DNA from: Rhodospirillaceae bacterium
GTDB taxonomy: Bacteria > Pseudomonadota > Alphaproteobacteria > GCA-2746255
Assembly (NCBI GenBank): GCA_002746255.1
Contig: NVWO01000001.1
Location: 97,198 to 161,197, forward strand
DNA length: 64,000 nt
Direction of reading: 5' to 3'
This document shows, piece by piece, positions 22,574-46,434 of the stretch (its first letter is position 1; each line of letters starts with the position of its first letter). The notes beneath the pieces were generated by a model, which saw only the letters and a list, made by a program, of their open reading frames with translations, was not told the origin of the DNA and ran no database searches. The translations under genes and the position numbers were made by a program.

Positions 22574-22649
22574 GTCCCCTTCGTCTAGCGGTCCAGGACA
22601 TCGCCCTCTCACGGCGAAAACAGGGGTTCGATTCCCCTAGGGGATACCA
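22574..22649 (+). tRNA. tRNA-Glu (anticodon CTC)
   Basis: GTCCCCTTCGTCTAGCGGTCCAGGACATCGCCCTCTCACGGCGAAAACAGGGGTTCGATTCCCCTAGGGGATACCA forms a cloverleaf. It has a 7-bp acceptor stem with G1:U72, T-loop TTCGATT, anticodon loop CTCTCAC and an encoded CCA. It is near-identical to enterobacterial tRNA-Glu. Confidence 0.85.
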
Positions 22650-22650
22650 A
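22633..22650. repeat. attL-like 18-bp direct repeat (TCCCCTAGGGGATACCAA) covering the tRNA-Glu 3' end
   Basis: An exact 18-bp copy recurs at 43803-43820. Confidence 0.7.
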
Positions 22651-22696: not shown

Positions 22697-24466
22697 TTGC
22701 CAGCTTCCTGCGTTGTAACAACAACGTGCTACAGCAAGGAGGTTGTCTTGTCCGTGCGAAGCCCTGCACATTTAAAGCACCGAAGTGGCGTCTTCTACTT
22801 TCGCAGAGCCGTTCCAGAGCCGTTCCGTGACATCGTAGGGCGGCGTGAACTCTGTCTTTCGCTGCGGACTCGCGACGTTGCGACCGCTAGACTCCTTTGT
22901 CGATTGTGTTCGAATCTATTCGAGCAATTGATGGAGGCGGTGGACAGGATGCCTGGGCTCGGCAAGAACAAGGTCGATGCGATGATTCGTAGCTACTTCG
23001 AGAGGCTACTCTCGAAGACGGAAGAGATCGTCTTTCTTACGCCACAGGACCCATCGATCGACCCAGAGTTCGAAGCGACCTTAGCTGAGGAGGATAGGCA
23101 GCGCCTCCAGGCTGAATTAGCCAAGGGAAAATTCGATAAAATCACTCTGCTAGAGGCCCAAGAACTAGCCGGCACGGGAGCGAACACGCCCCATAACGTT
23201 TCGGCAGACAAATTCAGGGCAATTTGCAACGGGGTCTTGCGTGCACGAATAGAACAGCGCCGCATATACGTGGCCATGTTGCGCGGTGCGTTTGATGAAG
23301 TGAAATCGAAGGACCCTTTGTTTGATGGCGTAACTTCGACGGGAATGCCGCCTCTTCCCGGGGACGAGCCGGAGCCCAAACAACTTACATTGGAAAACGT
23401 TATCGATAAGTTTTGTGCCATGAAGGAAGTTCAGGACTGGACGTCGAAAACAGCCGACGAGAACCGAAGAATACTGGGGTGGTTCCGCGAACAAATCGGT
23501 CCAACAAAAAACATTAACGATATAAATATCGAAGACGTTCGAGAGTTTAGGGACACGCTCTTCAAACTCCCAAAACACTTCACAAAAACAGTAGCGTTTG
23601 AGGGCATGGGGCTTGCTGAGATTGCGGCGGCCAAACCTGCGGGGGAGAAATTGGGTGCAAGCACATTGCAGAAATATTTTGGCTGTGTGCGCTGGTTTCT
23701 TAGTTGGTGTGGGGACGAGTACGACATTGACACGTCGAAGATGCTGAAGCTCAAGATTGGGCATAAAATCAATAGCTTTGACGCCAGGGAGCCATTTTCC
23801 CACGATCAACTAAAACGGCTTTTTAAATCCCCTCAGTTTACCGGCCATAACTCGCCATCTCACCGGGCAACGCCTGGCAGCCTCCTCATCAAGGACGGTA
23901 AGTTTTGGATACCCCTGATAGGTCTCTACACCGGGATGAGGCTGGGCGAGATTGTCCAACTTCTCGTAACCGATGTGCGCGAAGAAAAGGACGTGCTTCA
24001 CTTCGATGTTAACAAAGGAGAAGGTGACGCCAAGAAGACGCTGAAGACCAAGAGCAGTGTGCGCCGCATTCCTATTCACCCGGACTTAATACGCATGGGG
24101 TTTATGGATCATGTAGCGTTACAGCGACAAAAGAATCCGAAGGGCAGGGTATTTTCCGAGATTAAGACGGGAAAGAATGGCGACCATAGTCACAACATGA
24201 GCAAGTATTTTGGACGCTACCTTAAGCTGGTTGGGGTCAAGACGGGTAAAACGACCTTTCACAGTTTCCGTCACAACTTCGCTGATGCGCTGCGAAATGC
24301 TGAAGCCGAGGACTCGAGGATTAAAGCGCTGATTGGTCATGCCGAAAAAAGCACGACTGGTATCTACGGGGTTGGGGTTTTGCTTAAGGTATTAGCGAAG
24401 GACGTGGAGCGGATTAACTACGATCTCGACTTTTCCCACCTCTTTATCAATGCCAAAGACATTTGA
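22697..24466 (+). CDS. Tyrosine-type site-specific integrase (long N-terminal arm-binding region)
   Basis: N-terminal RSGVFYFRRAVP box typical of island integrases. Catalytic region contains R(LGEI), HSFRH and Y (TTGIYGVG). Adjacent to the tRNA. The exact start codon is uncertain. Confidence 0.85.
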   Translation: MPASCVVTTTCYSKEVVLSVRSPAHLKHRSGVFYFRRAVPEPFRDIVGRRELCLSLRTRDVATARLLCRLCSNLFEQLMEAVDRMPGLGKNKVDAMIRSYFERLLSKTEEIVFLTPQDPSIDPEFEATLAEEDRQRLQAELAKGKFDKITLLEAQELAGTGANTPHNVSADKFRAICNGVLRARIEQRRIYVAMLRGAFDEVKSKDPLFDGVTSTGMPPLPGDEPEPKQLTLENVIDKFCAMKEVQDWTSKTADENRRILGWFREQIGPTKNINDINIEDVREFRDTLFKLPKHFTKTVAFEGMGLAEIAAAKPAGEKLGASTLQKYFGCVRWFLSWCGDEYDIDTSKMLKLKIGHKINSFDAREPFSHDQLKRLFKSPQFTGHNSPSHRATPGSLLIKDGKFWIPLIGLYTGMRLGEIVQLLVTDVREEKDVLHFDVNKGEGDAKKTLKTKSSVRRIPIHPDLIRMGFMDHVALQRQKNPKGRVFSEIKTGKNGDHSHNMSKYFGRYLKLVGVKTGKTTFHSFRHNFADALRNAEAEDSRIKALIGHAEKSTTGIYGVGVLLKVLAKDVERINYDLDFSHLFINAKDI

Positions 24467-24481
24467 GGGATATGCACTTTC

Positions 24482-25570
24482 ATGCCGGTGATCTTCAATT
24501 ACAAAGGTACCCTTCACCCTAACAAGCCCCCCAAGGGAGGGAAGACAAAGTATAAGGTAGATATAAGCGATATAGGGAATAGCTATGAAAGACTGGATGG
24601 TTCCGATGTCCACTTGCTAAGACCCAAGATAGATTATCTAAGCGTAGTCTACGACGTGACTGACAAGGATGATCAGGAAGGCATCGTATCTAACCTCGTC
24701 GGCATTAAGAAAGATGCAGGTGTCCCCTATGCGAAGGACCCACCTAAGTCCTCAAATCTTTTTAAGGGTTACGAGATAGAACTTAGCTTGTTCCATGAGC
24801 CATCCGGGAGCTATATCGACGTTCAGGCTCGTCCTACCTCCAAGAAACAAAAAAAATTCATGCGCTTTCAGTTCATCCCATCGGTTCTGGGGAAGGAAGG
24901 ACTGTCTTTCATGAAAGATGAATTAACCAGTATTTTCAATGACGAGATGGCCTATGAGAAGATTGCGACTCAGGGAAAAGTCACCCGGGTTGATGTTGCC
25001 TGCGACATAATCAATGCTCAGATAAGTGAATTGCTGTTCCGACCGAGGAAGAAGGGTAAGAGGCATGCTTACTACTCTCAAGAAGGGGCCTTGGAGACGA
25101 TCTATATGGGGGTAAAGAAGAAGGACAAGAACAGCGACCTTTATGCCTATGACAAGGCTCTACAGCAGGAAGAGGATGAAATAGGGCAAACCTATCAAGG
25201 CGTCGTGCACACACGAGTAGAGTTCAGGGTCAAAACTCAGGTTCCGATAGTAAAATTGGCGTCGCTTGCCAGCCCACTAAGCAAGCTGGATGTGTTTGAT
25301 TGTGTTGCTGTCGCGCCCCCGGAGAAGGACCATAATTGGTGGCACTTCGTAGACAGTTGCCGTCATAGGGGTATAGACGGGGCGCTGGACATATTGCCGG
25401 ACGGAAAACGCAAACTCTACAAAGCCGCGTTAAATAAATCGCTTCATACGATGTGGAACCCGGAAAAGCTGTGGTCATATTGGCCGGACGTTCTTAAAAA
25501 ATCGGGGCTGCTGGACTTCAAGAAAGAAACTTCATCGTCAGGGCCCGATTGCAATCAATTGCAATATTAG
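24482..25570 (+). CDS. Putative rolling-circle replication-initiator-like protein (Rep_trans/RstA-like)
   Basis: 362 aa. Motifs VTRVDVACDI and TIYMGVKKKDKNSDLYAYDKALQQEED are reminiscent of the Rep_trans family (R.D.A.D ... Y.G.R.S....R.YDK..E). The match rests on remembered motifs only and was not checked by a database search. Confidence 0.4.
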   Translation: MPVIFNYKGTLHPNKPPKGGKTKYKVDISDIGNSYERLDGSDVHLLRPKIDYLSVVYDVTDKDDQEGIVSNLVGIKKDAGVPYAKDPPKSSNLFKGYEIELSLFHEPSGSYIDVQARPTSKKQKKFMRFQFIPSVLGKEGLSFMKDELTSIFNDEMAYEKIATQGKVTRVDVACDIINAQISELLFRPRKKGKRHAYYSQEGALETIYMGVKKKDKNSDLYAYDKALQQEEDEIGQTYQGVVHTRVEFRVKTQVPIVKLASLASPLSKLDVFDCVAVAPPEKDHNWWHFVDSCRHRGIDGALDILPDGKRKLYKAALNKSLHTMWNPEKLWSYWPDVLKKSGLLDFKKETSSSGPDCNQLQY

Positions 25571-25983
25571 AACCGTCCCAGGCTCTACAAACATCATACG
25601 CCATCCGGACACAGCCCCCTTCATGGGTTAGTGGCGAGGCTTTATCTTGCCTTAGAGACCCTATACCTTTGCCCGTGGAGCGGTACGCGCTGCTCTGGGG
25701 CTTTGTAACCCCGTCTATAGCGGTTGGTGCTGACCGTAACAGCGCCACAGTCCTTGACCTCTTTGGTCGGGGAGCCTGTGGCGTATGTCCAGGGCTTCTC
25801 GCCTAAAGGCCATAGGGGCCGCCTATAGACGGTTTACAAACTCCCCGATCACCAGGGATCAAGATGGGACCTACTTGCGGGGGCGTACCGCAAGCTTTGG
25901 TTTCGGGAGTGGTGGCGATGGGTAGAGACGGAACACCAATTTTGGTATCCGGGGGAGATTCAAGAACCCTCAGAAGGCTGCGC

Positions 25984-27114
25984 ATGGATGGCACGGAGAA
26001 CGCGCACAACGAGAAGTGGCTTCAGAAGCTAATTCACCGTCATCCTACATGCATCCCCATGGATCAGATCGAGCCTGGCCTATCGACGCTGGTCCCTGTT
26101 TGCATGGAACTTCCTTTGTCCTGTGGCTTTCTGGACAACCTGCTAATGACCCCCGATGGGGACATCGTAATCATCGAGGCTAAACTTTGGCGCAACCCGG
26201 AAGCTCGCCGTGAAGTCGTCGCGCAGGCTCTTGATTATGCCTCCAGCCTATTTGGCATGGACTACGATTCGCTTGAAAAAGCAGTGCTGAAGGCCGATTT
26301 CGATAACAAGGAGAAGCCTGCTCGCCTGTACGACATATTCAGCGACGCTGACACGCTCGATGAACCGGCCTTTGTCGATGCTGTGACCACCAATCTCAAG
26401 AATGGCCGTATCGTCGTCCTTGTGGCCGGAGACGGGATCAGAACAAGTATCGAGACCCTGATTGACGGGCTCCAGTTACATGCCGGTTTTCACTTCACCT
26501 TCGCCCTCGTCGAGTTGGCGGTATTTCGAGGCATGGATGATGATGATTTTCTCGTCGTGCCGCGCACACTGGCCAAGACATGCATGATCGAGAGGGGCAT
26601 CGTCCGCATAGACAACGGACAGGTTGAGATCGTTCCCGTTCAAGGAAAACCAGAAGTCGCGTCTTCCAGTCGCCTTCAATCTATTAGTTCCGAACAATTC
26701 TACGAAGCCATGAAAGAGAGAGCCTCTGGCCTGCCGGAAAGCTTGAAGGCCTTTGTGGACAAGCTATCGGCTCTGGGCGTCTATCCGGAATTCCAGCGTT
26801 CCCTGAACCTCAAATGGGACCCGCCATCAGGCAAGCCAATTAATCTTGGATACATCAAGCGGACCGGACAATTGTGGACCGATGCAGCCAGTTGGTCTCT
26901 TTCCGATAAAAAACTCGCTCGATCTTACATTGAGGACCTAGCTGAAATATTCGGGGGAGAAATTATGTATATCGGCAAGGACAAAATTCCATATGTCGCT
27001 GTGGAAGGGCATGCTCCGCGTATTGAAACGCTGGTGGACAAATTAGACGTCTGGCATGGGGCAATTGAAAAATTACAAGATCATGTCAGGCAAAATATTT
27101 CCACGGAGGGCTGA
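25984..27114 (+). CDS. NucS/Hjc-type PD-(D/E)xK nuclease-fold protein with ~250-aa C-terminal domain of unknown function
   Basis: GFLDNLLMTPDGDIVIIEAKLWRNPEARREVVAQALDYA matches the D...E.K...Q..Y core of the NucS/DUF91 restriction-endonuclease fold. Track ORF starts at 25864. ATG 25984 has an AGAAGG-like RBS. Confidence 0.5.
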   Translation: MDGTENAHNEKWLQKLIHRHPTCIPMDQIEPGLSTLVPVCMELPLSCGFLDNLLMTPDGDIVIIEAKLWRNPEARREVVAQALDYASSLFGMDYDSLEKAVLKADFDNKEKPARLYDIFSDADTLDEPAFVDAVTTNLKNGRIVVLVAGDGIRTSIETLIDGLQLHAGFHFTFALVELAVFRGMDDDDFLVVPRTLAKTCMIERGIVRIDNGQVEIVPVQGKPEVASSSRLQSISSEQFYEAMKERASGLPESLKAFVDKLSALGVYPEFQRSLNLKWDPPSGKPINLGYIKRTGQLWTDAASWSLSDKKLARSYIEDLAEIFGGEIMYIGKDKIPYVAVEGHAPRIETLVDKLDVWHGAIEKLQDHVRQNISTEG

Positions 27115-27127
27115 TCCAGCCGCAGCA

Positions 27128-27973
27128 ATGTCAATTAAAAAAAGCAGGACAGATGTGGTGAAAACAATTAGAGAGAAAAAAATCGGAAAAGTTACCCTGC
27201 GGCTGGTTGATGCCGGAAAGGCATATGCGGGCATTGTCCTTCAAGAGGGCAAGATAAGCTCGCATGTTGAAGGGGCTGATCCGGAAGATGTTTGGCAAAA
27301 ACTAGAAGCCAGCGCCGCAAGGAGCAGTCCAAACTACTTCGGGTTTGAAGCTGCAAAAAACCGCTTTCTGTCTTTCTTTCCAGACGGGTTTGCGTCTGAA
27401 CATTACCTGAGCAAGGAACGTCAATATAAGCTTCAAGCCAAAGAATTGCTGGATAACACAGTGCCTCTTGATGCGGCATTAAATAGCTCAGGTCATGGTG
27501 AGGCCATAAGGGCCGTTTTCAATAAAACAAACCTAATATCGCCATTCGAGAAGATGCGATTGAATGACGCTCTGCTTAGTGACCAGGCAGATCAATTTAT
27601 CAACGGTGCTGCCCGAATGGCATCGGGGGAGATAAAAAATGGTCTGCGTGAAATGGAGAAATCTCTGAAGCCACATGATGTAGCTAAATGGACTGTTGTC
27701 ACGTACCTGCCATTTTTATGGAATCCAACAAAACATATGTTTTTGAAACCGACAATCACCAAAGATTTTTCGGAACGGATAGGCCATCCTTTTTTCAATA
27801 ATTATGAAGCCAAGCTTGATATTGGGGTTTATGAGAGCTTGCTTGATTTGGTTGATAAGACCGAACAGAAAATTTCCGGCCTTGGTCCACAAGACCGAAT
27901 TGATACTCAGAGTTTTATTTGGATCGTTGGGGCATATGATATGGAAGTCGATGTGTCAGAGGTTCACGCATAA
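27128..27973 (+). CDS. Hypothetical protein (middle gene of the nuclease-ExoI operon)
   Basis: A 282-aa ORF starting 13 nt after the preceding stop. No motif recognised. Track ORF 27056 overlaps the previous gene, so the ATG at 27128 is preferred. Confidence 0.4.
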   Translation: MSIKKSRTDVVKTIREKKIGKVTLRLVDAGKAYAGIVLQEGKISSHVEGADPEDVWQKLEASAARSSPNYFGFEAAKNRFLSFFPDGFASEHYLSKERQYKLQAKELLDNTVPLDAALNSSGHGEAIRAVFNKTNLISPFEKMRLNDALLSDQADQFINGAARMASGEIKNGLREMEKSLKPHDVAKWTVVTYLPFLWNPTKHMFLKPTITKDFSERIGHPFFNNYEAKLDIGVYESLLDLVDKTEQKISGLGPQDRIDTQSFIWIVGAYDMEVDVSEVHA

Positions 27974-27979
27974 TCTGAT

Positions 27980-29350
27980 ATGACATTTATTTTCTACGAT
28001 ACGGAAACAACGGGGCTGTCGGCGGGCTTCGATCAAATTCTTCAATTCGCGGCGCTTGTAACCGATGACGATTTCAACGTTATCGAGGAAGTAAATCTGC
28101 GCTGCCGGTTGCAATCCCATGTAGTGCCATCGCCAGGGGCCCTCTTGGTTACGGGTGTGCGCCCGTCAGATATCCAAGGGGCCAATCTGTCCCACTATCA
28201 GATGGTCCGGAAAATTCGGAACGTGATTGAGCAGCACACGCCGGCCGTAATTGTTGGATACAACAGCATCAGTTACGACGAAAGCATGCTACGTCAGGCA
28301 TTTTACCAGACGCTCAATCCCGTCTACCTCACCAATATGAACGGCAACACCCGCATGGATATGTTGCGCGTCGCTCATGCCGTCTCAGAATATGCACCGG
28401 ACGTTTTGCAGATACCCTTGAACGATAAGGGGCGACCAAGTTTCAAGCTGGGTCTTCTTGCTGCCGCTAACGGCCTTGTTCACGAAGACGCCCATGAAGC
28501 CATGTCGGACACCTTGGTGACGCTTGGCCTGGCCAGGCTGGTGCGGGCAAAGGCACCAAAAATATGGGAGGCCATGTATGCGACGCGGGCCAAGCGCTCG
28601 GTACAGGGTTTTATGGCCGATACGGACGTCTTTTGTTTCACGGACAAGATGTTCAAGCAATCCTCGGTCCTTGCAACCCAGATAGCGCCCAGTCCGGAAA
28701 ATTCATCTCAAGTTGCAGTCTTCGATCTCTCCCACGATCCTGTCCACTATCTGGACATATCGAAAAAAGACATGGTGAGTTTGCTGCGAACAACTCCCCG
28801 CCCGATCCGCGTTGTTAAGGCCAACCAGCAACCCATCCTTGCTTCCTATGAGTTCAGCCATGTAGGGGTCGCGGGACATGACCTGCCAATTTACCAATTG
28901 CAAGAGAGGGCGCGTCAGGTAAAAGAGCACCCGACCTTCGCCGACAACGTGGCCCATGCCATTGCCAATCGTTATCCTGAGCGGGAGCCCTCCAAGCTTG
29001 TGGAAGAGCAGATTTACAATGCTTTTCCGAGTTGGTCGGATCAAAAACTGATGGAGCAATTTCACCAGCAGCCTTGGGAAGAGCGACTGGGGACCGTTTT
29101 ACAATTGACGGACGATCGATTGGGGGAGCTCGGGGAACGTCTGATCTATACGGAGCGTCCGGATGCATTGCCGGAGGACGTGATCCTTCGTCGTGATAGG
29201 TGGCGGCACGAACGAATTCATGCCGAACAGTCAGTGCAATGGGTGACTGCGGGGTCAGCGCTGGAAGAAGTCGAGTCACTCAGGACAAAGGGTTCAGGGA
29301 AGCACGAGGATTTGTTCCAAGACATTGAAATGTTCCTTGGAAAGTTGTGA
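27980..29350 (+). CDS. sbcB: Exonuclease I (SbcB) homolog, DEDDh 3'-5' ssDNA exonuclease
   Basis: Collinear with E. coli ExoI over the full length. FIFYDTETTG aligns to FLFHDYETFG (Exo I). QFAALVTDDDFNVI aligns to QFAAIRTDSEFNVI. GYNSISYDE is Exo II. RPSFKLGLLAAANGLVHEDAHEAMSD aligns to LPSFRLEHLTKANGIEHSNAHDAMAD (Exo III, H and D). Size 456 aa versus 475 aa. Confidence 0.8.
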   Translation: MTFIFYDTETTGLSAGFDQILQFAALVTDDDFNVIEEVNLRCRLQSHVVPSPGALLVTGVRPSDIQGANLSHYQMVRKIRNVIEQHTPAVIVGYNSISYDESMLRQAFYQTLNPVYLTNMNGNTRMDMLRVAHAVSEYAPDVLQIPLNDKGRPSFKLGLLAAANGLVHEDAHEAMSDTLVTLGLARLVRAKAPKIWEAMYATRAKRSVQGFMADTDVFCFTDKMFKQSSVLATQIAPSPENSSQVAVFDLSHDPVHYLDISKKDMVSLLRTTPRPIRVVKANQQPILASYEFSHVGVAGHDLPIYQLQERARQVKEHPTFADNVAHAIANRYPEREPSKLVEEQIYNAFPSWSDQKLMEQFHQQPWEERLGTVLQLTDDRLGELGERLIYTERPDALPEDVILRRDRWRHERIHAEQSVQWVTAGSALEEVESLRTKGSGKHEDLFQDIEMFLGKL

Positions 29351-29439
29351 TTGTCTGAGCTTTATTAGCCCATCCCCAGTCTCAAAAGGACTTATGGCGA
29401 CTAGAATTGGTAATTGTGTCAATTCATCAAAAAACATGC

Positions 29440-29650
29440 CGTTGACAAATATTTTGACAAATATTTCTGACAGCATGCAAACATTACGGCGATTGTCACA
29501 ATGTTAAATAAATGGCTAGAATCAAAGGCTTTTCACGAGTGCAATTGGTAATTTTAAATATAATTTGCGGGAAACAGACAGGGGCGGGTCCGCGTTGACC
29601 GCCTGTGACGTGGCGATCTTTGTGACAAAAATGCTGGTGTCAAAGTTAAA
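29440..29650. promoter_or_regulatory. AT-rich intergenic region dense in TGACA/TGTCA motifs
   Basis: TTGACAAATATTT occurs twice in tandem at 29442-29466. CTGACAGCA at 29467. Palindrome ATTGTCACAAT at 29492-29502. TGACA-N10-TGTCA at about 29612-29640. Lies between the ExoI gene and the next gene. Could be an operator or iteron array. Confidence 0.35.
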
Positions 29651-29908
29651 TCCTCCACATGTCTCCAAACTTGGGATCAAAAGAGTCGCCGGTCCATCGT
29701 TTGGCCCCCTTCATAAACTCACAAAGCCTATTCGTTTTTACTAAACTCAAGGCGTAGGGAGCGCCTTGATAAAGCGGGTAAATAACGTTTTGATTCTATT
29801 TTTATTATAGCGGTTATCACTTTACTCCTTCGTTCCCAAGCCTACGATAATGGTGGGACCTAAGATCTCAGTCCTCCCCTTGAAATTAATCTCAAGGAGG
29901 AGAAGACG

Positions 29909-31012
29909 ATGAACGGAACCCATATTCTTGATCACTATCGGTCCCAGCTTGCCGACCAAGTTCTGAAGCGCGGCACGGATATTCCCAACTTCAATCCATT
30001 GGAAATCTCTCCGTGGTTAGCGATGAGCCTGATGCAAAAAGCTATCCGCAGAGGTCGGGTGGATTTTGCCCTTCGGAGTGCTGCAACACTTCTTAAAATT
30101 TCACCTGAACGACTTTGGCGGAGACTTGGCGTCACTGCATTTGAAGACATCGGCGTTGGTAACTTGGAAGTTGTTTCGCTGGTTACAGTGGCTTTGGCAG
30201 GAAAGCGATACCGCGCCAAGATTGGTGGGGAGTGGGCTGTTGCCTCCTATCTGATCGGCATCATGTGCGAAGCAAACAAATGCAGGGCAGCGGATGATCT
30301 TGCCGTTGTTTGTGACTGGCACCCAGATTACGAACAACCGCGCCTGGAATTGACCTACAAGCCGATGCTGGAATTATTGAAGGTAGTAGAGGGTGCAGGC
30401 TCCATACCCGAAAAGTCTTTGGCAACATGGTATGCCCTGGGGACTGACCGTTGCCGCTCTCCCGTATTGCGGGAACGACGCGGCGACCCTCAAGCGGTGT
30501 TTAATTATTTATGTGAGGCTGGGTTCCCTGACACCGTGGTGGAAATCGCCCGAGAGGGTTTCAGAAAAGGTAGCGGTGTTCTGGCGGCATTCATGGTCTT
30601 GCTAGCGCAGGCATCGCAACAATCCGTTCATTATGCAAAATCGGATGATTTTCCAGAAGAGGGAATGATTGGAGACGTTCCTGGGTGGGCTTTCGACATG
30701 CATGTCCGCGAAGGCAATGCGGCCATGAGCCGGTTCCTCAAAACGGATTGCGAAACAGTCCGTTGGATTGACGACGTTTTGCCCCCTACCGGTCGGACGA
30801 AGTTTCTCGGCGGTGTCTTGTTCCGGATTGAGAGTGGGCTTGTTTCAAGCAGGCACCGTTGGAAAGTCGGGGACGATTTGCGCCGCATGTCTGATTTTGA
30901 ATGCGAGGCTCTGAGACACAAGAGGATCGGGGAAGTCATGACGCTGCTTCGTGCAGATATGCCTATTCTCAACGAAGCCCGGCGAATGGTCGTTTCCGGG
31001 ATGGGGAAATGA
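29909..31012 (+). CDS. Hypothetical protein translationally coupled to a tyrosine recombinase
   Basis: Strong RBS AGGAGGAGAAGACGATG. 367 aa. No recognised motif. Its stop overlaps the start of the next gene (ATGA). Confidence 0.5.
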   Translation: MNGTHILDHYRSQLADQVLKRGTDIPNFNPLEISPWLAMSLMQKAIRRGRVDFALRSAATLLKISPERLWRRLGVTAFEDIGVGNLEVVSLVTVALAGKRYRAKIGGEWAVASYLIGIMCEANKCRAADDLAVVCDWHPDYEQPRLELTYKPMLELLKVVEGAGSIPEKSLATWYALGTDRCRSPVLRERRGDPQAVFNYLCEAGFPDTVVEIAREGFRKGSGVLAAFMVLLAQASQQSVHYAKSDDFPEEGMIGDVPGWAFDMHVREGNAAMSRFLKTDCETVRWIDDVLPPTGRTKFLGGVLFRIESGLVSSRHRWKVGDDLRRMSDFECEALRHKRIGEVMTLLRADMPILNEARRMVVSGMGK

Positions 31013-32010
31013 CCATGTATGCGAACAAACGACAGGCAGCCAATGAGACGCCTCTAACCTCTGATAACACCCACTTATCGGAGCCCATAACAACCGCCCT
31101 GGATGGCGGTGCAATTAACTGCACACAAGCTACGTCAGGCTATGTGCGGGCGGCCATCGCTGATAATACGCGACGAGCCTATCGCGCCGACTTAAATCAC
31201 TTCCTGGAATGGGGAGGCGCTATACCTGCAACGGACGTGATGGTTGCCGATTACCTCGCTGTTCATGCGGGGGCGTTGGCAGTTTCAACCTTGTGCCGGC
31301 GTATTGCATCAATTGCAAAGGCACACAGGGCAAGGGGCCTGCAAAGCCCGACTGTCTCTGACCTGATCAAGGCCACCATGCGGGGCATCAAACGCACTCA
31401 CGGGGCTCCCCAGCGCGGCTCAGCGCCCCTTCTTATCGAGGACCTTCTCCGGATCATGAGCGTTCTTGGAGACGGCATGAAAGACACCCGGGACCGGGCG
31501 TTGTTGTTGCTCGGCTTTGCTGGTGGGTTCAGGCGGTCCGAACTCGTTGCGCTCGACGTTGAAGACATCCAGTCCGTTCGCCAGGGAATGATCGTCACCA
31601 TCAAACGATCCAAAACGGATCAGGCTGGTGTGGGGCGGCAGATAGGTGTTCCGTTTGCGCGCGGTCGGTTCTGCCCGGTTAAGTCTGTGGAGGCGTGGTT
31701 GCAAGTCGCGGGCATATCCGATGGCCCTGTTTTTCGTTCCGTGGACCGGTACGGGCGGGTTGGAACGCAAAGACTATCAAGTGAGGCCGTCGCCAATGTG
31801 ATCAAGGCCAGGGTCGAGCAAGTTGGCTTCGACCCAACGCTCTATTCTGGCCATAGCCTGCGGGCGGGCCTTGCTACCAGTGCGGCGATGGCAGGGGTTA
31901 GCTCCCTCGATATCCGAAAACAGACCGGCCATGCATCGGACGCAATGCTTGCGCGGTACGTACGGTCCGGAGAGTTGTTTGTGAATAATGCCTCTGGGGC
32001 TTTATTGTAA
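31009..32010 (+). CDS. Tyrosine recombinase/integrase (XerC/D-like, SAM-like N-domain)
   Basis: Catalytic motifs R (GFRRSELVAL), HSLRAG and RY (MLARYVRSG). Start ATG at 31009 overlaps the upstream stop. Track ORF 30901 is too long. Confidence 0.8.
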   Translation: MTMYANKRQAANETPLTSDNTHLSEPITTALDGGAINCTQATSGYVRAAIADNTRRAYRADLNHFLEWGGAIPATDVMVADYLAVHAGALAVSTLCRRIASIAKAHRARGLQSPTVSDLIKATMRGIKRTHGAPQRGSAPLLIEDLLRIMSVLGDGMKDTRDRALLLLGFAGGFRRSELVALDVEDIQSVRQGMIVTIKRSKTDQAGVGRQIGVPFARGRFCPVKSVEAWLQVAGISDGPVFRSVDRYGRVGTQRLSSEAVANVIKARVEQVGFDPTLYSGHSLRAGLATSAAMAGVSSLDIRKQTGHASDAMLARYVRSGELFVNNASGALL

Positions 32011-33490: not shown

Positions 33491-33600
33491 AGATAGGCGC
33501 AAAACCGTTCGACCGCGCCCACCGAATGGCGTCATTTGGCGGCCTGTAAGCGGGGTTGCCTCGCATTTCTGAGCCTTGTTTCATTAGACTGACAGCACCT
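33491..33600. repeat. Left copy of ~100-bp imperfect direct repeat flanking the type I R-M cassette
   Basis: About 80-85% identity to 40948-41047. Shared core CCGAATGGCGTCAWTTGGCGGCCTG..AGCG.GGTTGCCT.GC.TTT.TGAG.CTTGTTT.ATTA...CTGACAGCA. Confidence 0.6.
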
Positions 33601-35439: not shown

Positions 35440-36743
35440 GTTTTCCGCGTTACCCGGCCTACAAGGACAGCGGCGTGGAATGGCTGGGGGACGTGCCGGG
35501 GCAATGGGAGGTGGTGCCACTTAAGTATATTTCCACTCACAACGACGATGTGCTTGTTGAAAGCACTGACCCGAACAACGAGATTACCTATGTAGATATT
35601 TCCAGCGTGGACGGGGTGAACGGAATCGCTACGAAAGAAACAATGTCATTCTCAGCTGCTCCTTCAAGGGCACGGCGGCGCGTTAGGCATGGCGATGTGA
35701 TCGTCTCAACGGTTCGCACTTATCTCAAGGCAATTGCCGTAGTTCGTGACCCAGAAGACAGCCTCATTGTCTCGACTGGTTTTGCTGTAATACGACCGCG
35801 AGATGAACTTACACCTAACTATTTAGGTTTTTTGGTTTTCGCTAGTTACTTTGTCGAACAGATCATCGTCCGCTCAAAGGGCGTGAGTTACCCCGCAATC
35901 AACGCCGGTGAACTCGTCGCTATTTCGGTGCCACTTCCTTCACCCCCCGAACAAACCGCCATCGCTGCCTTCCTGGACCGCGAAACGGCAAAGATCGATG
36001 GGCTGGTGGCTGAGCAGCGGCGGCTGATTGACCTGCTGAAAGAAAAACGCCACACCGTCATCTCCCACGCCGTCACCAAAGGCCTGAACCCCGATGCCCC
36101 GATGAAGCCTTCCGGTATAGAATGGCTGGGGGACGTGCCGGAGCATTGGGAACTTCGAAAACTCTCGCAGTTATTTCGCGCAGGAAAAGGTAAGAACGGA
36201 CAAAAACTAACGAAGGAATATTGCGCCGCCAATGAAGGTGAATATCCGGTTTATAGTGGCCAGACTGAAAACGAAGGCGTCATGGGTACATGGGATCAGT
36301 TTGAATTTGACTTCGAAGATACGGGTGTTTTGTTTTCGACGACTGTTGGCGCGAAGGCCATGAATCTGCAGCAACTTTTTGGACGGTTCAGTCTGTCGCA
36401 AAACTGTATGATCATTTGGCCGACGTCGAGCCGATGCATTACGCGGTTTTTCTTTTACCACCTCCAGCCATTGTTTCGGTATCAGCGAGCCATGATTCCT
36501 GATCACATGCAGGCGTCTTTTAGGGTGGAAGATTTGTACGGATATTTCATTGCATTACCGCCAAGCGAAGAACAAACCGCCATCGCCGCCTTCCTCGACC
36601 GCGAAACGGCAAAGCTCGATGAGCTAATAGACGAAGCTCAACGCGCTGTGGATCTGCTGCAAGAACGCCGGACCGCGCTAATTTCTGCCGCCGTCACCGG
36701 CAAGATTGATGTTCGCGGGCTTGCCGATATGGAGGCCGCATGA
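35436..36743 (+). CDS. hsdS: Type I R-M specificity subunit HsdS (two TRDs)
   Basis: Two target-recognition domains separated by conserved repeats ([29 protein letters not shown] and [29 protein letters not shown]). ATGA overlaps on both sides. Confidence 0.85.
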
Positions 36744-37714
36744 TTGCCAAGCTTGAACGTGTGCCACTTCGGGAAGTCTGGAAGCATGAGGCTTATGACT
36801 TCACCCAGTGGCTTGAAGAAAACATCGACATTCTGAGCGAAGCGATAGACTTGACGCTTGTTAATGCCGAACGAGAAAAGAAAACAGAGAGTAGTTTCAG
36901 TGTTGATCTGGTCGCGGAAGATGAAAGCGGCGCGACCGTTATCATTGAGAACCAGCTAGAGAAGAGCAATCACGACCACCTCGGCAAGCTAATTACTTAT
37001 TTGACGGCGATGCAGGCTCGCACCGCGATTTGGATTGTCTCAGAACCTCGCCCGGAGCATGTGGCCGCAATCGTATGGCTGAACGAGTCTTCCAGTGCCG
37101 ATTTCTACTTACTAAAGATCGAGGCGATCCGTATCGGGGATTCGGCTCCCGCGCCTCTGCTGACGGTGATTGTAGGTCCGTCAGAAGAAGGTAAATCCGT
37201 GGGCCGTAGAAAGCAGGAGAGCGGCGAGCGTTATGACATCCGTCATCGATTCTGGTCACAACTGGTCCAGCACCCGAACGCCAAACTGCACAAACACATC
37301 ACACCGGGTAAGTACGCCTGGATCGGGCTCGGATCAGGAATGCGAGGGGTCGGGTTCAACTACGCAACCACCAAAGAACAATCGGGCGCCGAGGTCTACA
37401 TAGACCGGGGCAAGGAGTTGCGTGACGAAAATCTTGCGATCTTCGACCAGTTTCACGCGAAGAAAGACGAAATTGAGAAAGCTTTTGGCGGTCCATTGAG
37501 CTGGGAACGACTGGAAGGAAGACGAGCGTGCCAGATTCGTGCGCGTGTTGATGGCGGATACCGTAATCCAGAGGAACAGTGGAACGAAATCCACGGACGA
37601 ATGACGGATGCCATGAACAGGCTCGTTGACACGATCAGGCCGCAACTGAGGCACCTTCGAATTAAAAGTTCGTTGGAAAATGTTGGGTCCGAAGGTGCCA
37701 AACTATCGCCATGA
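36740..37714 (+). CDS. NucS-like PD-(D/E)xK / DUF4268-type protein embedded between hsdS and hsdR
   Basis: N-terminus LREVWKHEAYDFTQWL...VDLVAEDESGATVIIENQLEKSNHDHLGKLITY is the (D)...ENQ...HDHLG signature of a family often found inside type I R-M operons. ATGA-coupled to both neighbours. Confidence 0.6.
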   Translation: MIAKLERVPLREVWKHEAYDFTQWLEENIDILSEAIDLTLVNAEREKKTESSFSVDLVAEDESGATVIIENQLEKSNHDHLGKLITYLTAMQARTAIWIVSEPRPEHVAAIVWLNESSSADFYLLKIEAIRIGDSAPAPLLTVIVGPSEEGKSVGRRKQESGERYDIRHRFWSQLVQHPNAKLHKHITPGKYAWIGLGSGMRGVGFNYATTKEQSGAEVYIDRGKELRDENLAIFDQFHAKKDEIEKAFGGPLSWERLEGRRACQIRARVDGGYRNPEEQWNEIHGRMTDAMNRLVDTIRPQLRHLRIKSSLENVGSEGAKLSP

Positions 37715-40947: not shown

Positions 40948-41047
40948 GCAGAACCGTTCTGCCGCTCTGGCCGAATGGCGTCAATTGGCGGCCTGAAAGC
41001 GAGGTTGCCTGGCGTTTATGAGGCTTGTTTAATTATGCTGACAGCAT
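40948..41047. repeat. Right copy of ~100-bp imperfect direct repeat flanking the type I R-M cassette
   Basis: See 33491-33600. Begins inside the last codons of hsdR and extends about 220 nt into the downstream intergenic region. Confidence 0.6.
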
Positions 41048-43563: not shown

Positions 43564-43802
43564 GATGGCCTGCTTGCTTCAAATTTAGGGAAGAAGGCAT
43601 CTAACAATCTAGGGGCTATTCATAGATAGGTGCAGAACCAGCCTGCTCCGCTGAACCTTGTCTATTTTTGGAGAAAACCTAAGAGGCTCAGGTCACTGGT
43701 CTAGCGACTGTTACATAAAACTGTTACAGTAGACGCACCGCATGGAAGCGGCATGGGTGCTAACCATCTGTATTCATTGTGTCATGAAAGCTGGTGTTCT
43801 TC

Positions 43803-43820
43803 TCCCCTAGGGGATACCAA
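43803..43820. repeat. attR-like 18-bp direct repeat TCCCCTAGGGGATACCAA
   Basis: Exact copy of the tRNA-Glu 3' end at 22633-22650. Confidence 0.7.
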
Positions 43821-43986
43821 GCATTTCAACGTGCTAGCCCACCAACCGGCGGGCTTTTTTCATTTGTACGGAAATTATACGGAAAAGGTGGCGCGGAAAA
43901 ATGTTGAAACCGCCCCTTTAGAGGCGTTTTACATTATCTATCGCCCTTGGCCTGCTTAAACTTAGTGGCGCTGTTTGCACTGCAGC

Positions 43987-44292
43987 TTAGTTTGCGAATT
44001 CGCCAAGCTCCTTCCGAACTTGCTCAGTCGCCTGTAGTGAACACGATGCCGAATCCTTAAAAACCTTAAATTCTTTCGGGGCTGGCAATTGCATCGTGAA
44101 ATCTGACATGCCATCACCAATGTTGAACCCTACCCATGGCCTATCCGCCAATGATAAAACGAATTGTGAAGATAGGTTTGGACTTCGGGTCATATCAGTC
44201 ATTGCGAGCCAACCATCGTTTTCTGGAGATGGCTCATTAAGATAGAAACTTGTCGTTGATAAATTTTGATATCGAAGAAATGCGTTCGTCAA
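43987..44292 (-). CDS. Hypothetical protein (possibly the 3' half of a disrupted gene)
   Basis: An ORF of 101 aa immediately downstream of, and co-directional with, the 44308-44586 ORF, with a 15-nt gap. Confidence 0.3.
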   Translation of the reverse strand: MTNAFLRYQNLSTTSFYLNEPSPENDGWLAMTDMTRSPNLSSQFVLSLADRPWVGFNIGDGMSDFTMQLPAPKEFKVFKDSASCSLQATEQVRKELGEFAN

Positions 44293-44307
44293 GTTATGTC
44301 TAGCTAC

Positions 44308-44586
44308 CTAGCCTTGCCGTGCTTCGGAGACTACAAGCTTGAACACAATAGATGGTATTTTATTTTTGAAATAAAATTCATTTACTGACCCTTGGATTCC
44401 AAAAACTCTCCCATCTTTTGTTGCTGCAATATTGAAATGAACGCCACAACCATCGATGCGCCCATCCTTGGTTTGCATGAGCGGCCTATAAGTAGCCTCT
44501 ATTATATCCATCACACCCCCGGCAAAACTGTAGGCTGGCGTAAATAATGCTGCCAAAACGGCAATAGAATAAATTGCGACCCTCAT
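44308..44586 (-). CDS. Hypothetical secreted protein (signal peptide)
   Basis: N-terminus MRVAIYSIAVLAALFTPAYSFAGG is signal-peptide-like. 92 aa. Confidence 0.35.
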   Translation of the reverse strand: MRVAIYSIAVLAALFTPAYSFAGGVMDIIEATYRPLMQTKDGRIDGCGVHFNIAATKDGRVFGIQGSVNEFYFKNKIPSIVFKLVVSEARQG

Positions 44587-44728
44587 AACAAATCTCCCCT
44601 TGCAAGAATGTCAGCCTATTTTAGCCAGTGTCTTTCTTGCTGTCTTTATCATCTCGCCAACGCGCTTACGTTCCTTCCTGGCCTCATTCGTATAAAGTCC
44701 GTGTCTGCCCAAGGCTCGGGGAGTCCTT

Positions 44729-45568
44729 TTATCGCGCTTTAGCTAACGATGCGATTAAGGCGGGGGAGCGTCCGGCAATGGTAGTGCTTTGATTAAATGT
44801 CGCTTTATTGATTGCTCGAATGTGGCTGTCTTCTGTGATCTCAACCAACTTTTCTTTACCGCTAAATGAGTCGTGTGCAACTACTACGTCGTGAGCAATC
44901 GGAAACCATATCGAGTCAGCGGTGCGCGAGCGACTAGGAGACGTTGGCTTTACAATTGGGTTGCTTCCGATAACGAAGCTCTTTTCCGGCTTCTGGATTA
45001 TTGTAGTGACGAGTCCTTTGCTCTGAAACATTTGCAACACCTCTTCACCCAGTCTTGCAATGGCCTGCACCTTGGCATTCTGTATAAGCCTGTCTAGTGT
45101 TTTCTGGGAATGTAGCTTAGCGTGCTCGTCGATAGTGAGCGGCCTCGTTGCTTCGAAGTTTTCTAATTTAGTATGAATAAGTTTCTGGAATTGTTCAGGG
45201 CCAAAAACGTTGTTATGCATATCCGGCACACGCTTCCACTGGTAGTAAAAAAACCGGTCCCAATTTGATTTTTCAATAGGTGTTAAATCAGGTAATTCTC
45301 GGGTTCGCGCCGCCCCCAATATTTTCCTGATTATCGTGTCCGCCGTTCCTTCAAGGTCAGCAAACATCTTTTCAAGGGAAGTGTCCTTATCTCCATCCTC
45401 ATAGTGCTGGGTGTAAAGATTACCTACGACAAAAATATTCTTTGGGGTGACAGGTTGAACCCCTTTTTCCGGGAAGCGCTTGTCAAAAAAGTATAGTTTC
45501 CCATTTTCATCCGTGAACCGGCGTGACAGCATTTGCGCAATAAAATGGTTGCGTTTTGGCTCATTCAT
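44729..45568 (-). CDS. DUF4238-like protein
   Basis: N-terminus KRNHFIAQMLSRRFTDENGKLYFFDK resembles the DUF4238 signature (K.HH.VPQ.YL..F....G.lyvyDK). The family is common in accessory and defence islands. 279 aa. Confidence 0.5.
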   Translation of the reverse strand: MNEPKRNHFIAQMLSRRFTDENGKLYFFDKRFPEKGVQPVTPKNIFVVGNLYTQHYEDGDKDTSLEKMFADLEGTADTIIRKILGAARTRELPDLTPIEKSNWDRFFYYQWKRVPDMHNNVFGPEQFQKLIHTKLENFEATRPLTIDEHAKLHSQKTLDRLIQNAKVQAIARLGEEVLQMFQSKGLVTTIIQKPEKSFVIGSNPIVKPTSPSRSRTADSIWFPIAHDVVVAHDSFSGKEKLVEITEDSHIRAINKATFNQSTTIAGRSPALIASLAKAR

Positions 45569-45936
45569 AAAACTTCCTTTATAGGAAAGAGAAAAGCCGC
45601 AAAAAAAGGCAAAGTAATAATGTTGCGTGCCAATAGCTAGCTACCGCTGCGTTATTTCCACAACCAATCTAGGAAACAAATATCACCATAATCTATTGAT
45701 ATAACTGCTTAGTTGGCAATCAAGAGAATCAACCAAGCGTAGCTATTGGGCTGGTTTTCTTCCCTATAGAGACACCAAAACCGCGCCGCCTACCCGCCGA
45801 CCGTCGCCTTGCCCTTGCCGCTATAGCGGGTCGTGAAACAGCCGATGCCAGACCGAAATCGGCGCGATCAGCCGAGGACCAGGTTGTTCTGGTCCGTGTG
45901 TTCAAAAACTTTTCCGTAGATATCGACCGTCGTTGT

Positions 45937-46434
45937 TTAGAAATAGGACAGCTGGCCATTTCCAACGACGATTTTTTGCCGGAAGGCGGTCGTGGAGGCG
46001 TTCTTCTGCATGAAGGGGGACTGGATGATTGTCCAATTGGCATCGTCAGCCGTTGCCGCGACTTCGATGATGGTGCGGCCGTCTGAGTCTTTTTCCCCGG
46101 CATATTTGCCACCTGCAAGCACGCAGACCGCGCGGGGAATAACCAAAGAATGCATGACAATGCCCGCATCCTGGTCCCACATCCAATAGCCGGTCTCGTC
46201 GTGAAAGACCTCGCCATCCGATTTTCGGCGAACGATTTGACGGTAGTGGACGACCGCAAGGTTTTGCTGTTCGGCATTCGTCACGTCGCCAACGGCCGAA
46301 TAGGTAATGGTCTCAAAATAGGGATTGGTTTCTGTGCCATCGGGTTCCGGTGCCACATCGACGCCATCCTCCCCCTTCCAGACCCCAATCAGGTTCGTTA
46401 GCGGACCAAAGTCTATCGCGTTCTTCTTGCCCAT
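45937..46434 (-). CDS. Nitrobindin/THAP4-like (FABP-like beta-barrel, DUF1794-type) protein
   Basis: N-terminus GPLTNLIGVWKGEDGVD resembles the nitrobindin motif GPL..L.G.W.GEG. 165 aa. Confidence 0.4.
   Translation of the reverse strand: MGKKNAIDFGPLTNLIGVWKGEDGVDVAPEPDGTETNPYFETITYSAVGDVTNAEQQNLAVVHYRQIVRRKSDGEVFHDETGYWMWDQDAGIVMHSLVIPRAVCVLAGGKYAGEKDSDGRTIIEVAATADDANWTIIQSPFMQKNASTTAFRQKIVVGNGQLSYF

Follow-up and report, generated by a model that had tools for sequence, protein, structure and literature searches.

Bacterial END nucleases defend against phages by means of an inactivated EndoIII/Ogg1-like domain that senses hypermodified bases; the fusion partner of this sensor is a PLD nuclease in END-PaCF1, a NucS-like PD-DExK nuclease in END-Mag (which is active against modified-G phages) or, as a third option, an McrB-like GTPase (Yee et al. 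2025, PMC12191111). Modified phage bases are also recognised by the defence DNA glycosylases Brig1 and Brig3, in the case of Brig3 by base flipping. Here we describe a locus of three open reading frames (ORFs) on the + strand (25918-29350) of a 64,000-nucleotide (nt) stretch of contig NVWO01000001.1 from a Rhodospirillaceae bacterium metagenome-assembled genome, hereafter the window, which encodes a NucS-type PD-(D/E)xK nuclease (ORF1), a protein with a glycosylase-like predicted fold (ORF2), and a homologue of exonuclease I (ExoI, or SbcB; ORF3). Our preferred interpretation, to which we assign a probability of about 45%, is that this locus is a modular defence cassette that centres on a nuclease, targets DNA, and travels as cargo of an integrative island at a tRNA-Glu gene. 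We infer that the three proteins cooperate against modified phage DNA in the following order. By analogy with the END nucleases, ORF2 would scan DNA for bases that are non-canonical or hypermodified, with their excision as a further possibility. It would also direct or license in trans the putative core effector ORF1, which would nick or cut DNA. If so, ORF1 and ORF2 would together form a split, two-gene counterpart of a NucS-like END nuclease. ORF3 would then act as an accessory processive 3'-5' single-stranded DNA (ssDNA) exonuclease that widens the nicks or ends into irreparable gaps and removes the target DNA.

The resemblance to the END nucleases lies in the combination of a NucS-type PD-(D/E)xK nuclease with a helical domain that is probably Ogg/EndoIII-like, as well as in the shared location within defence islands. 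It extends to a relative of the ORF2 domain, the 624-amino acid (aa) protein P0483, in which an N-terminal PLDc_2 nuclease (HxK; HSK motif) is fused to an ORF2 domain at residues 402-610 (E 3e-36), so the ORF2 domain is also used in the END-PaCF1 architecture. A plasmid search with P0483 returned matches to its PLD part only and no annotated fused END-like relative. Unlike in the END nucleases, however, the putative sensor and the nuclease are here encoded by separate genes, with ORF2 following ORF1 after 13 nt, while ORF2 retains invariant Asp residues and carries an extra N-terminal beta-sheet domain. A further difference is the attached ExoI gene. Brig1 and Brig3 share with the proposed mechanism the concept of modified-base recognition in phage DNA as a means of defence, but they are derived from uracil-DNA glycosylases rather than from HhH-GPD proteins and have no dedicated nuclease or exonuclease. 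Individual parts of the locus therefore touch upon the END nucleases and upon two entries catalogued in PADLOC, RTasSbcB and PDC-S11, whereas no description of the combination itself was found.

A first-pass annotation of this DNA had proposed three co-directional ORFs with gaps of 13 and 6 nt, and the coordinates agree with it: ORF1 (25918-27114, +; 398 aa), ORF2 (27128-27973, +; 281 aa), and ORF3 (27980-29350, +) are separated at 27115-27127 and 27974-27979. No promoter-like or terminator-like site was found on the + strand within 25918-29350, and this operon-like packing supports the cassette interpretation. The exact window proteins are present in NCBI as COA65_00625, COA65_00630, and COA65_00635, and the NCBI record starts ORF1 at 25984, giving 376 aa. 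The first-pass annotation had used the same start. All three candidate starts of ORF1 (25864, 25918, and 25984) share the end at 27114 (+). ORF1 homologues are ~400 aa in length and their common conserved N-terminus aligns to MGRDGTPILVSGG of the window, residues in which the AF2 model of ORF1 places a beta-hairpin, while a GGGAG sequence is found 8 nt 5' of the ATG at 25918. Because of these three features, ORF1 most likely comprises 25918-27114 rather than beginning at 25984.

The assignment of ORF1 to the NucS-type PD-(D/E)xK nucleases, also made from the outset, is upheld by its NucS-like fold and by the conservation of its catalytic residues among homologues. The nuclease domain occupies approximately residues 30-205 in the 398-aa form, and the C-terminal part of the protein consists of unrelated alpha/beta domains. 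Across Pfam, NCBIfam, PHROG, and PADLOC, sequence-family searches gave ORF1 nothing beyond a marginal match to its nuclease core. ORF1 thus contains the PD-(D/E)xK nuclease domain that is C-terminal in NucS/EndoMS, but it carries this domain at its N-terminus; its Pfam match to NucS_C is marginal, and no Pfam match to the NucS N-terminal domain was obtained in ORF1. A distant relative of ORF1 is PDC-S11, a PADLOC candidate that consists of a NucS-like nuclease with a C-terminal domain and is often found within type I restriction-modification (R-M) operons. Both have the same type of nuclease core and a similar two-domain layout. ORF1 nonetheless lacks a full-length match to the PDC-S11 model, as the similarity is confined to ~59 core residues (residues 47-105, 1.3e-8) and its C-terminal half is unrelated at the sequence level. 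A true PDC-S11 gene is present elsewhere in the same island, inside its type I R-M operon (36740-37714, +; full-length match, 6e-137), and together with ORF1 this makes two NucS-like nucleases in the island.

ORF2 had been described as having no recognisable motif. This is accurate with respect to sequence families, since there was no match in Pfam, NCBIfam, PADLOC, or PHROG, but ORF2 is the most informative part of the locus, with a glycosylase-like predicted fold that ties it to the END nucleases. In the structural model of ORF2, which is confident (pLDDT 89), residues 12-66 form a four-stranded sheet with one helix, and residues 72-281 an all-helical domain. The top Foldseek matches in the Protein Data Bank (PDB) were mostly to MutY, EndoIII, SsOgg, and AlkA, all of them non-significant (E ≥0.27). 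A comparison by hhalign with the E. coli EndoIII sequence was likewise non-significant, and its single aligned stretch paired the invariant ORF2 segment TNLLSPFEK.RL with SPFELLIAVLL, the helix-B motif of EndoIII. In ORF2, 119 residues separate the Phe of SPFE from the invariant P.D..ID.QSF.W motif, which is close to the 108 residues between Phe30 and Asp138 of EndoIII, and both D256 and D259 are invariant and located at the spacing expected for a glycosylase catalytic Asp. No conserved Lys was seen in the ORF2 alignment at the position where bifunctional glycosylases carry the HhH Lys. With this fold-level similarity, we consider it probable that the helical domain of ORF2 is HhH-GPD-derived. 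Because the invariant Asp residues are retained, ORF2 may be catalytically active rather than an 'inactive EndoIII', making it a putative base-sensing accessory or possibly a glycosylase. A search of the ORF2 profile against PDB sequences yielded only HEAT/alphaRep repeats, which we dismissed as spurious. Among 1.84 billion representatives (50% identity clusters), the same profile found 1,526 matches, mostly stand-alone proteins of ~270 aa. The few fusions include some with DUF3553/tudor-like or unassigned N-terminal parts. The N-terminal part of a further protein, P0477, was considered as ORF1-like and rejected by hhalign.

For ORF3, the earlier identification of a full-length ExoI homologue with intact DEDDh motifs was confirmed by its Pfam matches (RNase_T and Exonuc_X-T_C, together with a precomputed ExoI_C annotation), by its alignment to E. 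coli ExoI 4jrp (148 bits) through FYDTETTG, GYNSISYDES, and HEAMSDT, and by the invariance of all five catalytic residues (D7, E9, D100, H172, and D177) in 17 homologues. Like E. coli ExoI (PDB 1fxx/4jrp), ORF3 has complete DEDDh exonuclease, SH3-like, and C-terminal domains. It differs from the E. coli enzyme in being island-borne, in belonging to a gene type that is linked to PD-(D/E)xK nuclease genes, and in its score against the NCBIfam ExoI equivalog NF008746 (238.2 bits), which falls under the cutoff of 260. A higher score was obtained with the PADLOC model RTasSbcB (333 bits, 7.1e-100), which is filed under DRT and is matched from end to end (model positions 2-429 of 436), and we class ORF3 as an island- or defence-associated ExoI homologue; genes of this type have more than 1,500 homologues. 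The first-pass statement that no named defence system is built around ExoI consequently needs to be qualified, as PADLOC contains this model of a reverse transcriptase (RT)-associated SbcB and two relatives of the ORF1-ExoI pair adjoin an RT gene, whereas the window has no adjacent RT. No published description of RTasSbcB was found, and the name is absent from the literature searched. Mestre et al. 2022 mention SbcB solely as a host gene that is rendered essential by UG17.

Broad co-conservation of the three genes was not observed. We compared three samples of related loci (numbered with the prefix L): 80 loci examined among ORF1 relatives from 419 species genomes, 80 examined out of at least 491 metagenome loci containing an ORF2 homologue (27 of them with ≥1.5 kb on both sides), and ten distinct loci anchored on ExoI-type genes. 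The full trio in the same order was encountered only in the close relatives L082 and L083, both in the ORF2 sample and with 60-67% identity, and L082 has an extra 228-aa ORF between ORF2 and ExoI. L081 is a variant in which a divergent ORF1-like gene lies downstream of ORF2-ExoI and is encoded on the other strand. A fixed co-conserved trio is therefore rejected. What does recur are pairs, either a nuclease with ExoI or a nuclease with ORF2, and since all of the pairwise combinations are found repeatedly, the genes represent a mix-and-match set. The 80 ORF1 loci include ORF1 with ExoI in L003 and L041 (the former without ORF2), ORF1 with ORF2 in L046 and L045, and ORF1 with an ExoI fragment in L047. 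Among the 27 well-flanked ORF2 loci, 11 contain DISARM genes, eight have an adjoining ORF1/PDC-S11-type nuclease, and one has ExoI. The nucleases adjoining ORF2 are PDC-S11 members in L140 (8e-156) and L100 (6e-14), so that true PDC-S11 can also take the place next to an ORF2 homologue. A PD-(D/E)xK gene from one of three families, or its remnant, precedes ExoI in five of the ten sampled ExoI loci: ORF1 itself in L164 and L180 (frameshifted in the latter), the ORF1 C-terminal half in L162, PDC-S11 in L161 (8e-38, with one 149-aa gene between), and a PDDEXK_4 nuclease in L181. In addition, at least 13 ORF3 homologues among the matches listed reside on contigs equal in size to those of ORF1 homologues. 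Pairwise identities of ORF1 and ExoI co-vary across six ORF1-ExoI loci (r = 0.94), which fall into two deep clades, {window, L003, L082, L083} and {L041, L164}, and this co-divergence is evidence that suggests co-inheritance of the pair, although from few independent events.

The L162 gene (7439-7996 in that locus; Magnetospirillum sp. ME-1, CP015848) encodes a 185-aa protein that matches the C-terminal half of ORF1 only (37% identity to residues 206-398), and 4 nt separate it from an ExoI-type gene of 521 aa located downstream. Either the L162 gene is truncated, or it indicates that ORF1 works with ExoI through its C-terminal domain. A 348-aa neighbour of ExoI in L168 was also considered as ORF1-like and was rejected by hhalign. 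The first-pass annotation had further raised the prospect that such exonucleases accompany Rep_trans-type replication genes, which would imply a replication or maintenance role. This linkage did not materialise, as the called neighbours of ExoI-type genes showed none of these replication genes and the gene upstream of ORF1 in the island (ORF0, see below) matches neither Rep_trans nor any other family.

The same samples hold a number of observations that weigh against a cooperating cassette. Neither ORF2 nor ExoI is present in 73 of the 80 ORF1 loci, most ORF1 homologues occur singly, several of them in prophage-like settings, and most ORF2 loci have neither an ORF1-like gene nor ExoI. Five of the ten ExoI loci are without a nuclease partner; in four of these none was recognised, and the remaining one (L183) looks housekeeping, with QueC, radical SAM (QueE-like), and RmuC as its context. 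The correlation between ORF1 and ExoI identities rests on two clades and is not phylogenetically independent. ORF2 itself gives no match at hmmscan E≤1 to the Pfam OGG-like family PF21790, which END-PaCF1 does match, and its GC content (0.436; 0.415 at third codon positions) is clearly unlike that of ORF1 and ORF3. The GC content of ORF2 is distinctly below that of its neighbours in all four loci compared, which suggests a later insertion of ORF2 between ORF1 and ExoI. Most of these observations would suit the alternative that survives best, although we still regard it as somewhat unlikely, namely that three independent single-gene cargo or defence genes were packed into an island hotspot as a recent mosaic operon, with ORF1 acting as a stand-alone type IV/PDC-S11-like nuclease, ORF2 as a lone glycosylase or sensor, and ExoI autonomously. 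The occurrence of ExoI with unrelated neighbours or alone, the ORF that splits ORF2 from ExoI in L082, and the ORF1-ExoI pair without ORF2 in L003 all fit such independence. It is more difficult to reconcile with the 13- and 6-nt gaps and the lack of internal + strand signals, with the repeated occurrence of all three pairwise combinations in divergent lineages and with different nuclease families exchanged for one another, and with the retention of the ORF1-ExoI pair down to ~42-48% identity in two clades. Moreover, the fused PLD-ORF2 protein indicates that a nuclease can be a working partner of the ORF2 domain.

A defence role for the locus, which the first-pass annotation had suggested together with anti-defence as the other option, is plausible because of the RTasSbcB match of ORF3, the distant kinship of ORF1 with PDC-S11, and the location of ORF2 homologues within DISARM operons and beside GmrSD and PDC-S11 genes. 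The anti-defence option is considered unlikely, since viral contigs contained few members of any of the three families (four ExoI-type matches, ten ORF2-type matches, and one close ORF1-type match). Many loci contain an ORF2 homologue inserted between drmMI and drmA of complete DISARM class 1 operons (drmD-drmMI-drmA-drmB), and the assignment of these ORF2 loci to DISARM is firm (DrmMI, E = 0; DrmA, 6e-260; DrmD, 4e-300; DrmB, 1e-84). The window itself differs in having no Drm genes, and tblastn with Drm proteins from the related loci found no match in it. ORF2 is not among the described DISARM components, and judging from gene position, ORF2 and its companion genes in these operons would be undescribed DISARM accessories. 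Other ORF2 neighbours are GmrSD with an Eco57I-like methyltransferase and, in prophage-like settings, a C5 methylase, terminase, and ParB-methylase. Around ORF1, a ParB-domain methylase homologue is present in 14 of the 80 loci and hsdM of a type I R-M system is nearby in four.

These contexts also bear upon a second alternative, that the genes form a mobile excision-repair or mutation-avoidance module in which a glycosylase-like protein, a NucS/EndoMS-like nuclease, and ExoI carry out consecutive base-excision or mismatch steps on host or island DNA. All three proteins do belong to classical repair families (NucS; Ogg/EndoIII/MutY-like; ExoI), and the invariant Asp residues of ORF2 fall where the catalytic Asp of a glycosylase would be expected. 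We nevertheless find this alternative improbable, given the patchy island-, plasmid-, or prophage-like distribution with its strong turnover and the embedding of ORF2 in DISARM operons or beside GmrSD and methylases. Features of the proteins also speak against it: ORF1 has no detectable match to the NucS N-terminal domain and only a marginal one to NucS_C, and ORF3 misses the ExoI equivalog cutoff, its best score being on a defence-associated PADLOC model.

Several side observations concern the same neighbourhoods. DISARM class 1 loci or fragments that contain an ORF2-family gene are L090, L091, L093, L096, L106, L107, L110, L115, L119, L122, L125, L153, and L157, and the usual company of the DISARM-embedded ORF2 is either a helix-turn-helix/peptidase M78 (RmrA-like) gene together with a 172-aa gene, or a NOV_C (DUF3883) gene. 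ORF1-family genes reside beside a ParB-domain N6/N4 methylase in L016, L027, L029, L033, L036, L038, L042, L043, L046, L048, and L049, and pairs of ORF2 with PDC-S11 are located beside the same type of methylase and a terminase large-subunit gene in L095, L100, and L109. This ParB-methylase-associated setting looks like a prophage cargo hotspot.

An RVT_1 gene is convergent with the ORF1-ExoI pair in L164 (9412-11301, -) and in L041 (2880-4253, -). The two RTs are unclassified, 66% identical, and have a weak UG17 or Drt9 match, and an RT fragment is found near ExoI in L167. The RT of L164 is followed by a 165-aa gene of no known family. This RT-convergent clade may be the context behind the 'RT-associated SbcB' of PADLOC. 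A broader proposal would have ExoI and a NucS-like nuclease as a conserved 'cut-and-chew' core onto which different sensors are plugged, ORF2 in the window and an RT in L041 and L164, with ORF2 additionally serving DISARM, GmrSD-adjacent loci, and PDC-S11; we offer it as a speculative and rather doubtful extension. If it were true, different systems could share ORF2 as a trans-acting sensor of modified bases, and ExoI would be an exonuclease dedicated to immunity; neither role has been described. It is very improbable that the locus is instead a remnant or variant of an RT-linked system, in which the ExoI-type enzyme would control RT-made ssDNA, ORF1 would be the effector, and the RT of the window would have been lost or replaced, because the best PADLOC model of ORF3, the RT genes or fragment in L164, L041, and L167, and the finding that host SbcB restrains DRT10 (bioRxiv 10.64898/2026.04.29.721553) are offset by the absence of any RVT or PADLOC RT match among the island ORFs tested, by the empty tblastn search of the window with the L164 RT, by the lack of an RT in the available sequence of the clade members L003 and L081-L083 (L003 and L083 end soon after ExoI), and by ORF2 filling the slot between ORF1 and ExoI in the clade of the window.

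Should the cassette interpretation hold, the END principle, in which a repair-glycosylase fold senses hypermodified phage DNA, would also exist in a split form, its free-standing sensor being able to pair with various nucleases, and a sensor embedded in DISARM operons would help to explain how such systems recognise modified DNA. Defence nucleases, and at some loci RTs, would likewise have a horizontally transferred ExoI homologue as a dedicated partner, a role that connects with recent findings on host SbcB, by which the threshold for activating RT-based immunity is set. The locus also supplies clonable candidates for three large uncharacterised families.

The setting of the locus in a tRNA-integrated island of lower GC content with an R-M system and an XRE/Fic pair, as previously proposed, was substantiated by the tRNA gene, the integrase, the terminal repeat, and the base composition. 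On the attL side, the integration site is a tRNA-Glu(CTC) gene (22574-22649, +; ARAGORN; Rfam tRNA, 60.6 bits), followed by an integrase with DUF6538 and Phage_integrase domains in Pfam (22697-24466, +), of which a homologue is present in the related island L164. The right end of the ~21.2-kb island is an attR-like sequence at 43786-43820 (+) that imperfectly repeats the 3' end of tRNA-Glu; it is 83% identical to 22616-22650 over 35 nt, and the final 19 nt are identical. GC content is 0.516 in the island, 0.594 in the left flank, and 0.560 in the right flank. Between the integrase and ORF1 lies ORF0 (24482-25570, +; 362 aa), which has no match in Pfam, PADLOC, NCBIfam, or PHROG. Downstream of the trio, the island carries ORF4 (29909-31012, +; 367 aa, no family match), a second tyrosine recombinase (~31006-32010, +; Pfam Phage_integrase), the XRE/Fic pair, and the type I R-M system. 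ORF0 homologues are found in L002 with an Int2-type recombinase and in L057 with both Int2 and ORF4, and ORF4 homologues adjoin an Int2-type recombinase near ORF1-family genes in L003, L057, and L164. With homologues in further islands that bear ORF1-family genes, ORF0 and ORF4 probably provide backbone functions of this island family. The gap between ExoI and ORF4 (29351-29908) comprises 558 bp of non-coding, AT-rich DNA (GC content 0.42), in which positions 29493-29522 resemble a promoter and a terminator-like hairpin spans 29590-29613; an Rfam search of this gap was empty and no RT remnant is present in it.

Further downstream, 99-nt direct repeats (33499-33597 and 40948-41046; 83% identical) bracket the entire hsdM-hsdS-PDC-S11-hsdR unit, which suggests that these R-M genes were inserted together or exchanged as one cassette. 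The hsdS gene contains internal direct repeats at 35471-35509/36113-36151 and 35949-36004/36570-36625 (87-93% identity). In hsdS genes, duplicated conserved regions usually flank the two target-recognition domains, and the internal repeats are these usual duplicated regions. Beyond the attR-like repeat, ~2.5 kb of low GC content (0.45-0.47; 43820-46400) includes an unannotated 279-aa gene (44729-45568, -); this segment may represent either a small second islet or what remains of an older island.

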